Shown in pieces: positions 14,605 to 53,670 of a stretch of DNA of 64,000 nt (its first letter is position 1; every line of letters begins with the position of its first letter). The notes under the pieces were generated by a model. That model saw only the letters and a list, made by a program, of their open reading frames with translations. It was not told the DNA's origin and did no database searches. The position numbers and the translations under genes were made by a program. Origin of the DNA: an uncultured bacterium (GTDB lineage: Bacteria > Chlamydiota > Chlamydiia > Chlamydiales > SM23-39); assembly GCA_964424735.1 (NCBI GenBank), contig CAYRJU010000005.1, positions 5,009-69,008 of the forward strand, read 5' to 3'.

Positions 14605-14621
14605 CTAAAATTCTCCCAATT

Positions 14622-14805
14622 TCTTAGAGACTGCCTCTGAATTAAGGCTTCGTCGCTTTTGGGGATTATTTTGGCTAACTTTCGATTCAAAATTGGGGGG
14701 TCATATACGGGATGTTGATATTACCCCCCAATTTTGAATCGAAATTTAGCTCAAAAGAACCCCAAAATCGACAGAAGCTTAATTCAGAGACAGTCTCTTA
14801 TAAGA
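14622..14805. repeat. ~180-bp near-perfect palindrome filling the sppA / mscS-like intergenic spacer
   Basis: Arms 14622-14700 and 14724-14805 are complementary apart from a few mismatches and indels. A G6/C6 clamp flanks a 23-nt loop at 14701-14723. Confidence 0.85.
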
Positions 14806-41439: not shown

Positions 41440-41620
41440 TTATTAACCCGAGACTCAAACAGGTGACAATCGACTTGCTGCGGCTTTGCCATATCGATCC
41501 TCGCTCGGAATCCTTCGTATTCAAGAATGTTCTTCCTCGCGACGACCGCGGGCAAGCCCGCTTCGATCTGGCTTTGCCTCGCCGAGTCGACTGTCACCTG
41601 TTTGAGTCTCGGGTTAATAA
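41440..41620. repeat. 181-bp MITE-like element with 36-bp terminal inverted repeats
   Basis: TTATTAACCCGAGACTCAAACAGGTGACAATCGACT (41440-41475) matches the reverse complement of 41585-41620 at 35 of 36 positions. The interior is GC-rich. Confidence 0.75.
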
Positions 41621-48161: not shown

Positions 48162-48286
48162 CCTGCCGCGAGCGTAAGCGAAGCAATCCTGCAGGCCTCG
48201 CGTCAGCGGGCCGTATCCTGTTTAAAAATATAAGGGAACAGGATCGGCTGACGCCGGCAGGATCGCTCGCTCGCGCTCGCGGCAGG
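48162..48286. repeat. GC-rich imperfect palindrome between the MFS gene and tRNA-Leu
   Basis: Arms 48162-48222 and 48238-48286. The perfect end pair is CCTGCCGCGAGCG / CGCTCGCGGCAGG. The loop is TAAAAATATAAGGG. Confidence 0.75.
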
Positions 48287-48295
48287 ATAAGAAAT

Positions 48296-48379
48296 TGCGG
48301 CCAAAAGGAGTTGAACCTTCACCGAGTTGCCCCGACTAGAACCTGAATCTAGCGCGTCTGCCAGTTCCGCCATGGCCGC
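48296..48379 (-). tRNA. tRNA-Leu (anticodon CAG)
   Basis: Manual fold: acceptor GCGGCCA/TGGCCGC, anticodon stem CTAGA/TCTAG with loop TTCAGGT, long variable arm. Confidence 0.9.
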
Positions 48380-48472
48380 AAAAATGGCTCTCATTATAAG
48401 TTCATGGAGGATTCTTTGTCATTTGGAAAAAAATCTGTGAGATGAGTAGACTGGGTGTAAAAGAGGTGTAGA

Positions 48473-51648: not shown

Positions 51649-51676
51649 TTGACAGAACGGACTTGAGCAGTATACC
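51649..51676 (+). promoter_or_regulatory. Sigma-70-like promoter candidate for uhpC
   Basis: TTGACA (51649-51654), a 16-nt spacer, then TATACC (51671-51676). Confidence 0.35.
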
Positions 51677-51719
51677 CTTTTTGGTTTGTACGAATGGCAT
51701 AAAAACCCCTGGAGGCCTC

Positions 51720-53054
51720 GTGTCCGTACTCGATATTTTTAGACCCGCTCCCCCCGTTGACGAGATTCAAGATCCAGAACTGGTAAAAAAAAATTATAAG
51801 TATTGGCGCCTCCGTACCTTTTACGCCATGTGGGTAGGCTATGCTTTTTTCTATTTCACGAGAAAGAGTTTTACCTACGCCATGCCCGTCATGCAAGTTG
51901 AGCTAGGCCTCAGCAAATTTGAGCTCGGGCTTCTCGGAAGCATTCTCTACATCACTTATGGCGCTAGTAAATTTTTGAGCGGTATTTTGGGGGATAGGTC
52001 CAATCCGCGCTATTTCATGTCCATCGGTCTCATCCTCACCGGTATCTTCAACTGCTTTTTCGGCATGTCTTCGATGTTTTGGGCTTTTGCCGTATTTTGG
52101 GGACTCAATGGAGTGTTTCAGGGTTGGGGATGGCCAGGTTGTGCAAAATTACTCACTCACTGGTATTCGCAATCGGAAAGAGGAAGATGGTGGAGTGTTT
52201 GGAACACGTCCCACAATATTGGAGGCTCTCTCATCCCCCTCTTGGTAGCAGCTTGTGCAGAATATCTCGGCTGGCGCTTCAGCATGTATATCCCGGGTTT
52301 GATCTGTATCTTGGCTGGATTTTTCATCATGAACCGCCTGCGCGACACTCCTCAATCTTTGGGACTGCCCCCAGTGGAAAAGTTCCGCAACGACTATTCT
52401 GCCAAAACAGGCTCCAAAGAAAAAACCAACCTCTCTACCAAAGAAATTCTCTTTGAATATGTCATCAAAAATAAATACATCTGGATCTTAGCCGTTGCCT
52501 ATTTTCTCATTTATGTGATCCGGACAGCTGTCAACGACTGGAGCATGGTCTATTTCATCGAGGTAAAAAATTATTCTCTGAAGCAGGCGGGTGTCTGTCT
52601 GTTTTGGTTTGAATGGGGAGGCCTTGCGGGAAGTTTGGCTGCAGGCTGGGCGTCTGATTTGATTTTTAACGGAAAGAGAAATCCCATCAACATTCTCTTC
52701 ACGGTTGCCATTCTTCTCTTGATCTTCGCTTTCAAATCGTTTAGCGCGACCTCTGTTTGGATCGATTCGGTCTTTATTTTCCTCTTTGGATTTTTTATCT
52801 TTGGTCCTCAGATGCTCATCGGAATGGCGGCCGCGGAACTCTCGCACAAAAATGCGACGGCTACAGCGACCGGTTTTGTCGGCTGTTTTGCCTATCTTGG
52901 AGCAGCTGTTGCAGGGGGACCCCTTGGCGCAATTACGCAGAAGTATGGATGGGATGTCTATCTCACCACTCTTTTCATTTGCGGTCTTCTCGGCGCCCTC
53001 ATCATGCTTCCTCTTTGGTCAGTAAAAACCAATCCCAAAGAAGCCCTCGTCTAA
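51720..53054 (+). CDS. uhpC: Hexose-phosphate transporter UhpC (MFS organophosphate:Pi antiporter)
   Basis: IFRPAP...YKYWRLRTFYAMWVGYAFFYFTRKSF N-terminus typical of UhpC/UhpT. GTG 51720 is preceded by GGAGG. The track TTG start at 51663 lies inside the promoter candidate. Confidence 0.85.
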   Translation: MSVLDIFRPAPPVDEIQDPELVKKNYKYWRLRTFYAMWVGYAFFYFTRKSFTYAMPVMQVELGLSKFELGLLGSILYITYGASKFLSGILGDRSNPRYFMSIGLILTGIFNCFFGMSSMFWAFAVFWGLNGVFQGWGWPGCAKLLTHWYSQSERGRWWSVWNTSHNIGGSLIPLLVAACAEYLGWRFSMYIPGLICILAGFFIMNRLRDTPQSLGLPPVEKFRNDYSAKTGSKEKTNLSTKEILFEYVIKNKYIWILAVAYFLIYVIRTAVNDWSMVYFIEVKNYSLKQAGVCLFWFEWGGLAGSLAAGWASDLIFNGKRNPINILFTVAILLLIFAFKSFSATSVWIDSVFIFLFGFFIFGPQMLIGMAAAELSHKNATATATGFVGCFAYLGAAVAGGPLGAITQKYGWDVYLTTLFICGLLGALIMLPLWSVKTNPKEALV

Positions 53055-53086
53055 CACATTAAATAAGACTAGTTCGAGGAGATATT

Positions 53087-53605
53087 GACGTCGGGCATGC
53101 TTCATTATCATTCCGCCCCCGCGCCCAGGTGACCGGATTCCGGCTGTGATCACCAGTCGCGTTTGAAACGTTCCTTATCGCGTCTGCGTGCTCCGCGACC
53201 TAGAGGTCAGCTCCGCCGTTTTTATACGACGCGATTGCTCTTTGCCGGTCGCGATATCCTCCGGATCTCGCTAACCGGTCAATGGCTGCGCTCAGGTTCC
53301 CCATTTCATGGGGGCCCCTCCGAGCGCAGAGTGGGCCGCGCGGCAAAGGCCTAGCGCGGCTTCGTGTTACCGCGCACGGAGTTGCGCGGTTCCCTGCACC
53401 CGGAGGGGACCCCACAACGTGGGGAACCTGGGTGCAGCCAATATCCGGTCACCTGGGCGCGGGGCTGCGGAATCGAGGAAAAGGTCCTTGAATGGACCTT
53501 TTTCTCGCGGAGCAGATGAGCGAAGCGAATACGCCCGATTGGACGAGCTGCTTTGCGGCTCGCCTGAGGGGGAGCGACTTCAGGTCGCGTAACATGCCCG
53601 ACGTC
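53087..53605. repeat. 519-bp GC-rich hairpin-dense element with perfect 13-bp terminal inverted repeats
   Basis: Termini are GACGTCGGGCATG (53087-53099) and CATGCCCGACGTC (53593-53605). A perfect 22-bp inner inverted repeat pairs 53117-53138 with 53443-53464. There are at least 5 perfect local hairpins. ORFs in every frame are Arg/Pro/Gly-rich. Confidence 0.8.
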
Positions 53606-53670
53606 CATATTTATTTGGATTCGTTTTATGCATTATTTTTTTATCCATTATTTTGTATACTCCCGAGAAT

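Follow-up and report, generated by a model that had tools for sequence, protein, structure and literature searches.

The block lies in the spacer between a gene for a UhpC-like MFS transporter (NF008661, 542 bits; just under the cut-off of 564) and dnaE, within the 64-kb stretch of DNA that was analysed as a whole (the window). The best matches of the DnaE encoded here were obtained from Parachlamydiales/Chlamydiales MAGs, with 82–86% identity, which places the organism among the Chlamydiae. We observed that uhpC is placed directly upstream of dnaE in 30 related loci, where the spacer has a median length of ~96 nt and the gap is ≤135 nt in 23 of them. In the window the same gap is 616 nt, and it amounts to ~91 nt without the element, which is close to the spacer of the relatives. 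Therefore, we concluded that the element is an insertion. It starts 28 nt past the uhpC stop codon and ends 61 nt ahead of the dnaE start. From this position, it is likely that the insertion spares the conserved TGTATACT motif adjoining dnaE, and that any transcript reading through from uhpC would gain a very stable hairpin, including one composed of an A-run, a stem and a T-run. Other TA-flanked palindromic elements were found in the uhpC–dnaE spacer of L021, L022, L007, L002 and L013/L003. The assemblies of three relatives break off 157–268 nt upstream of dnaE, and two of these ends (L003 and L004) fall within the same TA-flanked palindromic repeat.

An earlier note, made from the sequence of this stretch, had described a GC-rich, non-coding block bounded by a perfect 13-nt inverted repeat, and our analyses bore out each of these properties. 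The G+C content is 62% at 53083–53609 in a genome of 47% G+C. Across 53100–53600 it stays at 0.60–0.70, as compared with 0.466 on average in the window (sd 0.048, 200-nt windows), and just one other 200-nt stretch of the 64 kb, a coding one, exceeds 0.60. The terminal repeat GACGTCGGGCATG/CATGCCCGACGTC (53087–53099/53593–53605) extends outward as ATAT(T/G)GACGTCGGGCATG to 18 nt with one mismatch. The ATAT next to both termini, which had been proposed as a target-site duplication, is part of these symmetric ends, so that a TA flank with an extended inverted repeat fits better. We thus define the element as 53085–53607 (523 bp), which becomes 527 bp once the two TAs are counted.

Five internal ORFs (63–94 aa) are present and all of them lacked a Pfam match. 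The 85-aa ORF predicted by the gene caller (P0123) matched only itself among 5.8e9 proteins. The 94-aa ORF, used as a probe against 1.8e9 representatives, gave two weak matches (P0121 and P0122), both over the segment that we call module B, and a repeat search with this ORF gave no match. The copies of the element described below are also separated by frame-breaking indels, whose lengths are not divisible by three.

The interior is organised by inverted repeats (Table 1). The inner 22-bp repeat reported earlier (53117–53138 with 53443–53464) is indeed perfect, with zero matches expected by chance, and can be lengthened to 30 nt (90% identity) or ~39 nt (87%). All five local hairpins (53299–53313, 53335–53360, 53369–53390, 53410–53424 and 53478–53504) could be confirmed from the sequence. 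A third, interleaving pair (53194–53214/53571–53589) fared less well: it exists only if gaps are allowed, and it is not kept in the full-length homologue of locus L075. Between the hairpins H1 and H2, the local stem is preserved by two compensatory pair changes.

Table 1. Features of the element and their positions in the window
Feature	Coordinates	Strand	Remarks
Left flanking TA, candidate target-site duplication	53083..53084	.	TA 4–5 nt outside GTCGGG at both ends of 5/5 complete copies
Left terminal inverted repeat, TTGACGTCGGGCATG	53085..53099	+	Perfect 13-nt core; GTCGGG(N)TG at both ends of all copies
5′ arm of long inner inverted repeat, including the perfect 22-mer 53117–53138	53110..53146	+	Homologous arms in L075 and L072
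Module A (left-half block), conserved core CGCGACCTAGAGGTCAGCTCCGCCGTTTT	53129..53324	+	nhmmer matches in L017 and L075
Hairpin H1, CTGCGCTC...GAGCGCAG, apex CCCCA/TGGGG	53286..53329	+	Read from sequence
Two central hairpins, GCCGCGC/GCGCGGC and ACCGCGCA/TGCGCGGT, apex of the foldback	53335..53390	+	Counterparts in L075
Hairpin H2, inverted copy of H1, CTGCACCC...GGGTGCAG	53394..53437	+	Repeat I1
3′ arm of long inner inverted repeat	53435..53473	+	
Module B, hairpin followed by tail	53457..53532	+	Covariance model R1, 91.3 bits
Rest of 3′ domain: CGCCCGATTGGACGAGC-loop-GCTCGCCTGAGGGGGAGC, variable hairpin 53574–53588, then GCGTAACA	53533..53592	+	Aligned with L072, L073, L075, L076 and L077
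Right terminal inverted repeat, CATGCCCGACGTCCA	53593..53607	+	
Right flanking TA dinucleotide	53608..53609	.	

We searched for homologues by nhmmer with a 570-nt query, comprising the element and ~25 nt of flank on each side, and obtained E values of 1e-22 to 1e-28 against L075, L072, L076 and L077, 4e-17 against L073 and 4e-16 against L017. Five copies are complete (window, L075, L072, L076 and L022) and three are partial (L077, L073 and L017). The homologues, all on Chlamydiae-like contigs, range from 159 to 731 bp, and the window copy is colinear with that of L075 over its whole length. Module A was matched in L017 (16358–16543, E 3e-16) and in L075 (4772–5061, E 1e-27). The left-half copy in L017 could be taken for a stand-alone sRNA with its own terminator. 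Since the hairpin at its end is the homologue of the one at the centre of full-length elements, it is more likely a truncated copy. Two further candidates, L071 and L074, were set aside as probably chance or very distant matches to a 23-mer pattern.

All five complete copies follow a common end design: TA, 4–5 nt, GTCGGG(N)TG ... CA(N)CCCGAC, 4–5 nt, TA. The ends are of the GTCGGG(N)TG(Y)TACGC type in inverted orientation, and we write the family end motif as TA-N4-5-GTCGGGNTG. The regular expression TA-N4-GTCGGG ... CCCGAC-N4-TA retrieved the copies of L022 (159 bp), L076 (371 bp), L075 (628 bp) and L072 (731 bp); in the window copy the spacing is N5 at both ends. TA was present at 10/10 ends, for which we estimate a chance probability of ~1e-7 (TA frequency ~0.1, two offsets allowed); TA is its own reverse complement, so that a duplication and a longer inverted repeat look alike. 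GTCGGG is invariant at both ends, and the outer 4–5 nt are variable and often non-complementary (GAAA vs GTCA in L075; AACG vs GATG in L072). As the end sequence is conserved and the outer bases are often unpaired, protein-recognised terminal inverted repeats (TIRs) fit these ends better than an RNA stem.

Every copy with readable neighbours resides in a different gene context, and the orientation relative to the neighbouring genes varies. The L075 copy lies between a PagL-like gene and a hydrolase gene, antisense to both; that of L077 comes from the same metagenome sample on a separate contig; that of L022 is located ~6.5 kb beyond the dnaE start; and that of L072 has a tRNA ~85 nt away. Relatives at the L022 insertion site were only 65–70% identical. 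We observed one copy in the 64-kb window and two in one metagenome sample. These Chlamydiae also carry several further TA-flanked palindromic repeat families, three of which are present in the window.

Conservation within the element is strongly asymmetric: a ~60-nt block in the 3′ part is nearly invariant, and the left half is variable or replaced. Module B consists of a hairpin CGAGGAAAAGGTCC-TTGAAT-GGACCTTTTTCTCG (53474–53507) and a tail GCGGAGCAGATGAGCGAAGCGAA (53507–53529), which includes a GCGAAGC mini-hairpin (53520–53526). The covariance model R1, which scores 91.3 bits on this module, gave 15 matches at E<1e-4 from 12 sources. Among its cells, 92% are paired, as compared with 41–54% in slid controls, and both sides are changed in 11 pairs; 0/500 shuffles came up to this. 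In the tail, 20/23 bases are identical in 11/11 aligned copies and three positions vary two ways; seven of these 11 copies were retrieved with a pattern that itself demanded the tail match. The mini-hairpin covaries from GCGAAGC to ACGAAGT. This 74-nt hairpin module, with its invariant tail, was also found within three other palindromic repeat families, where it sits at the apex of the palindrome.

Taken together, we consider that the block probably belongs, as one of its copies, to an undescribed family of MITE-like elements in environmental Chlamydiae, which are non-autonomous, fold back and carry terminal inverted repeats; most likely it is the family that is new, and the kind of element is known. 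Among the three interpretations of the earlier note, that of a non-autonomous TIR element is best supported, by homologues in different contexts, conserved ends, TA at all ten ends and the ~90-nt spacer. Bacterial MITEs are known to have TIRs, 5′-TA-3′ termini, target-site duplications and transcripts that form long stem-loops (PMC2229807). The copies described here share conserved TIRs, lack coding capacity and occupy several unrelated sites, with filled as well as empty ones (the ~96-nt spacers of the 30 relatives). The bacterial MITEs reviewed so far are <200 bp and A+T-rich (PMC2229807), as against 523 bp and 62% G+C in the window copy; these features are typical of such elements and not defining.

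Insertion would have occurred at a TA, through a DDE transposase acting in trans; candidates are an enzyme of a TA-duplicating type (for instance IS630/Tc1-mariner) and one of the IS427 group of IS5. Such an enzyme would recognise the 15–20 nt ends, and the TA would be duplicated upon insertion. The variable interior may have grown through internal duplication, inversion and the exchange of hairpin modules with other palindromic repeat families of the same genomes. Judged from the aligned copies, the interior is held as hairpins through compensatory substitutions. Covariation in hairpins would suit an RNA as well. We looked for a transposase-encoding element with the same ends (120–4000 bp) in the window and 79 loci (~1.1 Mb) and found none; this search returned short copies and one chance pair inside dnaE of L019.

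Two groups of known elements come close to this design. The Correia/NEMIS (CREE) elements of Neisseria are likewise non-coding, bounded by inverted repeats and provided with 5′-TA-3′ at both termini; the whole element forms a long stem-loop, size variants arise by an internal block, and the copies are intergenic and near genes (PMC2229807; PMC5039591). However, Correia elements are ~107–155 bp long, A+T-rich and found only in Neisseria, whereas this family spans 159–731 bp at ~62% G+C and has, unlike them, a strongly conserved asymmetric internal core; the Correia TIR has no sequence similarity to this family. A partial resemblance to the Correia TIR is limited to the other repeat family of the window (TTAACCCG). 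The RUP elements of Streptococcus pneumoniae and the MITEs derived from IS630/Tc1-mariner share the TIRs and the TA insertion site (PMC2229807), and for them, too, a DDE transposase that duplicates TA has been proposed to act in trans (PMC2229807; for ISY100, PMC2170065). RUP is 107 bp and its TIRs match those of a known IS (IS630-Spn1), whereas no matching IS was found here in ~1.1 Mb.

The asymmetric conservation suggests a function beyond transposase binding. One tentative reading is that the nearly invariant 3′ core has a function of its own as a module of structured nucleic acid and is not passive repeat DNA. This core would perhaps comprise the module B hairpin, the GCGGAGCAGATGAGCGAAGCGAA tail with its covarying GCGAAGC and a stem with a GAU/UGA internal loop, and it might ride as cargo on at least four inverted-repeat backbones in environmental Chlamydiae. 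Its role could be that of a protein-binding RNA, a bidirectional terminator/insulator or a single-stranded-DNA signal. The GCGAAGC sequence forms an unusually stable mini-hairpin in single-stranded DNA. Resemblances within the core to hammerhead-like CUGAUGA or box C/D-like motifs were rejected, as the essential positions differ and Rfam gave no match.

It is also conceivable, though unlikely, that the family represents a multi-copy gene for a large structured non-coding RNA. In that case, the closing P1 stem would be formed by the terminal repeat, and the covarying hairpins would be real RNA helices; the invariant GCGGAGCAGAUGAGCGAAGCGAAU and CCCGAU-GGACGAGC...GCUCGCC-UGAGGG would be functional junctions or protein-binding loops, and such an RNA could itself travel on mobile DNA. 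This is consistent with the covarying stems and invariant unpaired stretches of module B, with the compensatory changes by which pairing is preserved among the H1-type hairpins of the window, L075 and L017, and with a 3′ domain that is far more conserved than the remainder. The size range of the copies (159–731 nt) would not be exceptional, as known large RNAs also vary in size through optional domains. Folding is very stable: the minimum free energy of the block is −316.5 kcal/mol on the + strand and −314.5 kcal/mol on the − strand, as compared with ~−216 and ~−209, respectively, after shuffling (z = −14.5 and −15.2). However, neither strand folds consistently better across the copies: in this comparison the window copy gave −314.5 (+) and −313.8 (−) kcal/mol, and the − strand has a small advantage in L072 and L076. 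G–U counts were not raised on the + or the − strand. The closing stem is conserved by sequence and not by covariation, with its outer bases often unpaired, and TA flanks at all ends would be without reason. Outside the element the copies share neither a promoter nor a terminator, and a simple scan found none. Perfect or near-perfect helices of 22–55 bp are unusual in functional RNAs, and the occurrence of module B at the apex of other palindromic repeats also speaks against an RNA gene.

The Rfam searches point in the same direction. At E≤1 there was no match for the window copy (best 17.6 bits vs a threshold of 270) or for the copies of L072, L073, L075 and L076: L075 gave at best a sub-threshold MIR3454 (33.4 bits vs 142), L073 only a 17.3-bit match (threshold 181.5), and L072 and L076 nothing apart from the flanking tRNA in L072. 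Thus no Rfam family came near its gathering threshold here, RNase P, tmRNA, SRP, 6S, group I/II introns and ribozymes included. In gathering mode, the whole window and four loci yielded tRNAs only, and ARAGORN detected neither tRNA nor tmRNA at the site. The large RNAs ROOL, GOLLD, OLE and HEARO are several hundred nt long, with many hairpins and a closing stem, and are often multi-copy or carried on mobile DNA. All of them are in Rfam and none matched the element at E≤1; they are strand-specific, whereas the two strands of this element fold equally well. The specific proposal of a large ncRNA ending at the terminator-like hairpin 53478–53504 is further disfavoured, since this hairpin is followed by the most conserved 60–100 nt and by the 3′ strand of the closing stem, and since the orientation to neighbouring genes varies and there is no strand bias.

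Still less probable is an array of the REP/BIME or REPIN kind, in which a RAYT-type Y1 (HUH) transposase would use hairpins of single-stranded DNA as its substrate and in this way spread and maintain units such as H1/H2 and module B; the large block would have built up from these units. Defined inverted ends and TA flanks, as present here, are not known from REPs and IS200/IS605-type elements. The REP/BIME/REPIN and RAYT systems are described in PMC2817692 as G+C-rich imperfect palindromes and inverted pairs of hairpin units, with stems that evolve by compensation and a mosaic, modular layout. The block is likewise G+C-rich relative to its host, H1 and H2 represent a single hairpin unit in two opposite orientations that differ by compensatory changes, and module B, with GCGAAGC covarying to ACGAAGT, behaves as a portable 74-nt hairpin within several different palindromic hosts. 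However, REPs are short units, usually with more than 100 copies per genome and without TIRs or TA flanks, and the hairpins of this family are parts of one TIR-bounded unit, not found alone. H1/H2 and the other hairpins had no further copy within the 64-kb window, and the H1/H2 unit pattern gave zero matches in GTDB genomes (596 Gb) and JGI metagenomes; the unit is thus not a dispersed REP. The REP/BIME cluster, as put forward in the earlier note, does not agree with hairpins that occupy homologous positions of one element, colinear throughout between the window and L075 and therefore a single unit, not a cluster assembled ad hoc. A Y1 transposase was not seen among the few neighbouring ORFs scanned. 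Pneumococcal BOX elements produce stable hairpins in transcripts; they are not known to have the TA-flanked TIR design, and they have no sequence relation to this family. They are similar in being modular (boxA–boxB–boxC), with a variable number of modules giving a variable length (PMC3049150).

A last reading, hardly credible, is that a one-off remnant of GC-rich foreign DNA is decaying here, that its palindromes arose by chance and that it belongs to no family. The single copy in the window and a sensitive blastn against phage and plasmid collections, in which the element had no match, might suggest this. It was refuted by the homologues, which occur in at least seven further contigs and have their ends and core conserved, and the fold z-score of ~−15 also speaks against it. 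In viral contigs, the 22-mer, module-B and module-A patterns gave zero matches each.

Large and plastic genomes are characteristic of environmental Chlamydiae. In the literature searched, we found no description of small non-coding repeats from these organisms. Their genomes hold several families of TA-flanked palindromic elements, one of which is unusually large and G+C-rich, with a conserved covarying core. Gene callers place spurious ORFs within such elements (P0123), and metagenome contigs of the relatives examined terminate beside or within such repeats. The otherwise conserved uhpC–dnaE junction is a recurrent insertion site and could act as a strain marker. Should the core have a function, Chlamydiae would possess in it a cis element specific to them and open to direct tests; as cargo, on the tentative reading above, it would make the 520–730-nt elements mobile elements of a new class, of the structured-RNA or single-stranded-DNA type.

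The best matches of the DnaE protein were Parachlamydiales/Chlamydiales MAG proteins (82–86% identity), and we compared the surroundings of dnaE in ~50 related chlamydial loci. In 30 of these ~50 loci, dnaE is directly preceded by a uhpC homologue, with a median gap of ~96 nt (≤135 nt in 23 of the 30). In the window, the gap of 616 nt shrinks to ~91 nt once the G+C-rich element residing there is taken out. As this value is like that of the relatives, the element has been inserted into an ancestral short spacer, 28 nt past the uhpC stop codon and 61 nt ahead of the dnaE start. The insertion left undamaged a TGTATACT motif that precedes the dnaE ATG by ~11 nt (53650-53670). This motif is conserved upstream of dnaE in the loci L001, L003, L007, L011, L013 and L054, with variants in L016 and L044, and may serve as an extended −10 element from which a dnaE mRNA with a short leader or none would start. 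In L021, L022, L007, L002, L013/L003 and L001, the same spacer harbours different palindromic elements or larger insertions.

The G+C content of the element block is 0.60–0.70 against a window average of 0.466, in agreement with the earlier note. The perfect 13-nt terminal repeat and the perfect 22-nt inner repeat described there were reproduced, no such 22-mer being expected by chance, and the local hairpins that it listed are all present in the sequence. The terminal repeat, moreover, extends outwards beyond 13 nt to ATAT(T/G)GACGTCGGGCATG. The family-wide conserved feature is TA at 53083-53084 and 53608-53609 instead of the proposed ATAT target-site duplication, and an imperfect 'third pair' of repeats was obtained only with gaps and is not kept in the closest full-length homologue (metagenome contig L075). 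When folded as single strands, both strands were ~100 kcal/mol more stable than dinucleotide shuffles (z-scores of −14.5 and −15.2).

A BLASTN count of copies had been proposed as a check; the element occurs once in the 64-kb window and has homologues outside it. Searching the related loci with blastn and nhmmer, we matched the left half of the element to L017 and the ~75-nt module B, a hairpin with its tail, to L013, L022 and L024. A metagenome scan with a module-B-derived pattern, GCGGAGCAGRTGARCGAAGYGAA, returned nine contigs; complete homologous elements were found on L075, L072 and L076, and right-hand parts on L077 and L073 (nhmmer E-values of 1e-28 to 4e-17). The window copy is colinear with that of L075 over its whole length. 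The gene contexts of the L075, L077 and L072 copies are mutually distinct. A PagL-like gene and an alpha/beta hydrolase gene flank the L075 copy, which is antisense to both, and a TLC ATP/ADP translocase gene nearby points to an intracellular bacterium as host. The L077 copy comes from the same sample (G+C of 0.479 versus 0.474 for L075) and lies on a separate contig with other neighbouring genes, while that of L072 is ~85 nt from a tRNA. The L072 copy also holds two more inverted, diverged module-B-like hairpins (146-222, 483-573 (− strand); 34.7 and 45.8 bits with R1, the covariance model of module B), which shows that parts of a single element have been duplicated and inverted. In another organism, residues 1–40 of a predicted 120-aa protein, P0121, are the C-terminus of a DDE_Tnp_1_3 transposase (E = 2e-11) and the remainder is translated module B and 3′ domain, so an IS abuts, or has inserted into, an element copy.

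Features of the window and complete copies of the element
Feature	Location	Description
uhpC	51663-53054	UhpC-like MFS transporter
uhpC-dnaE spacer	53055-53670	
dnaE start codon	53671	ATG
Hairpin H1	53286-53329	
Hairpin H2	53394-53437	
Module B	53457-53532	74-nt hairpin and tail
P0123	53354-53608, − strand	85-aa ORF
TTAACCCG-family palindrome	41440-41620	181 bp, ends TTATTAACCCG...CGGGTTAATAA, 58-nt arms, 84% complementary
Third-family foldback, near-perfect	14621-14803	183 bp, 86-nt arms, 83% complementary, motif TTCGATTCAAAATTGGGGGG
G+C-rich inverted repeat	48162-48286	20-nt arms, 90% complementary, 85 nt apart
Complete copy, TA to TA	L022	159 bp
Complete copy, TA to TA	L076	371 bp
Complete copy, TA to TA	window	527 bp
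Complete copy, TA to TA	L075	628 bp
Complete copy, TA to TA	L072	731 bp

Each complete copy has the form TA, 4–5 variable nt, GTCGGG(N)TG(Y)TACGC ... GCGTARCA(N)CCCGAC, 4–5 nt, TA. All 10 ends of the 5 complete copies carry the TA; being its own reverse complement, the dinucleotide would give the same count whether duplicated or part of the inverted repeat. GTCGGG is without variation at both ends, whereas the outermost bases vary and are frequently non-complementary. This is the pattern of terminal inverted repeats (TIRs) recognised by a protein and not of an RNA closing stem. A multi-copy structured RNA is, in view of such ends, an unlikely account of the element.

The interior forms a long, imperfect foldback whose apex varies. 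Hairpins H1 and H2 are inverted copies of a single hairpin, in which two compensatory pair changes preserve each stem (CTGCGCTC/GAGCGCAG versus CTGCACCC/GGGTGCAG). The H1-homologous hairpins of L075 and L017 diverge further with pairing retained, the apex being CCCCA/TGGGG in the window, CCCAC/GTGGG in L075 and CCCAAC/GTTGGG in L017. The most conserved part is an asymmetric 3′ domain of ~170 nt. Within it, the module-B hairpin and its tail, CTTTTTCTCGCGGAGCAGATGAGCGAAGCGAAT, were invariant in 6/6 long-type copies (window, L072, L073, L075, L076 and L077), although the five metagenome copies had been found with a pattern that demanded 23 bases of this stretch. The tail is followed by a stem, GGACGAGC/GCTCGCC, with GAU/UGA on its flanks.

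R1 gave 15 matches at E<1e-4. In their alignment, 92.3% of cells pair, compared with 41–54% in controls with slid partners; as R1 itself had shaped the alignment, these figures are biased towards structure. Changes on both sides were observed for 11 of 20 module-B pairs, a number reached by 0 of 500 shuffles, and compensatory changes are visible in the raw sequences too. A GCGAAGC mini-hairpin becomes ACGAAGT, with both sides altered. Across copies, neither strand was steadily more stable or richer in G-U pairs, and the orientation of the element relative to neighbouring genes differs. Simple scans found no terminator and a single promoter-like site, outside the element. With its stem set between an A-run and a T-run, the module-B hairpin might terminate transcription weakly in both directions. 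The sequence that is best conserved is found past this hairpin, which argues against an RNA ending there; together with the lack of strand preference and the variable orientation, this speaks against the earlier proposal of an ncRNA ending at an internal terminator.

The Rfam search (E-value mode) that had been recommended gave at best 17.6 bits for the element against a 270-bit threshold. ARAGORN found nothing at the site, and phage and plasmid collections held no match. Five ORFs of 63–94 aa inside the element had no Pfam hit. A search of 5.8e9 proteins yielded no homologue of P0123, a gene-caller prediction on the source contig lying wholly inside the element; this ORF is almost certainly spurious. 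Indels between homologous copies also disrupt every reading frame. The element is thus non-coding, as first supposed.

We consider that the element probably represents a new family of non-autonomous, TIR-bearing foldback (MITE-like) elements, which would insert at TA and presumably depend for their movement on a TA-duplicating DDE transposase acting in trans. Among the three readings in the earlier note, the non-autonomous TIR element is therefore the best explanation, and the REP/BIME cluster and the terminator-ended ncRNA find less support. No autonomous element with matching ends was found in the window and related loci (~1.1 Mb). Typical bacterial MITEs are <200 bp and A+T-rich (PMC2229807); the element, with 527 bp from TA to TA and its high G+C (0.60–0.70), is atypical in both. 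Its closest likeness is to Correia/NEMIS, RUP and ERIC-type bacterial MITEs, which have TIRs, a terminal TA and a whole-element hairpin, but it differs from them by size, G+C content and the conserved asymmetric core. A REP/REPIN-type system driven by a Y1 transposase is improbable: G+C-rich, compensated hairpins are common to the element and REP/BIME, but solitary dispersed units like those of the latter were found neither in the 64-kb window nor, with a pattern for the H1/H2 unit, in GTDB genomes and JGI metagenomes. The idea of a unique remnant is refuted. Within the proposed MITE-like family, the internal core is conserved beyond what transposition alone requires, and there is a modest chance that it is a functional RNA or single-stranded-DNA module borne by several repeat backbones.

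Three further long inverted-repeat elements carry module B at their apex or close to it. The module resides inside TTAACCCG-family members in L013 and L024 and in two different palindromes (L078 and L079), and is missing from the TTAACCCG-family members at window 41440-41620, L013 5481-5695 and the two L018 copies. The element just upstream of dnaE has module B in L013 and lacks it in the relative L003/L004, so the module was gained or lost as a unit. The TTAACCCG family, whose window member lies ~350 nt downstream of tRNA-Thr, occurs elsewhere in L013 (two copies), L018 (two copies), L024 and L003/L004. In L018 (14935-17100), two direct copies flank an A+T-rich 1.8-kb segment with one long ORF of unassigned function, apparent by eye; the arrangement is reminiscent of a composite element or a cassette. 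The TIR of this family, e.g. TATTAACCCGCTAGGCAAAAATGAGACAAA (L013 9637-9666; window 41440-41470), shows partial similarity to the Correia repeat of Neisseria, TATAGTGGATTAACAAAAATCAGGACAA (PMC5039591), with TA, TTAAC and AAAAAT-AG-ACAA in common, and the resemblance may be due to chance. The third family has many copies in L018, L021, L030, L052, L002 and L007. The G+C-rich inverted repeat of the window lies between a gene end and tRNA-Leu (48295-48380).

Three close-relative assemblies (L002, L003 and L004) end 157–268 nt upstream of dnaE. In L003 and L004, two assemblies of one organism that encode identical DnaE proteins, the contig end falls within a TTAACCCG-family repeat (L003 1-140, L004 1-30), and L002 starts with a GATTTTCGAT-family repeat (1-120), which suggests that palindromic repeats break metagenome assemblies. 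The sharing of module B among backbones, together with the presence of several families, indicates that these genomes hold several TA-flanked palindromic repeat families that probably exchange parts.
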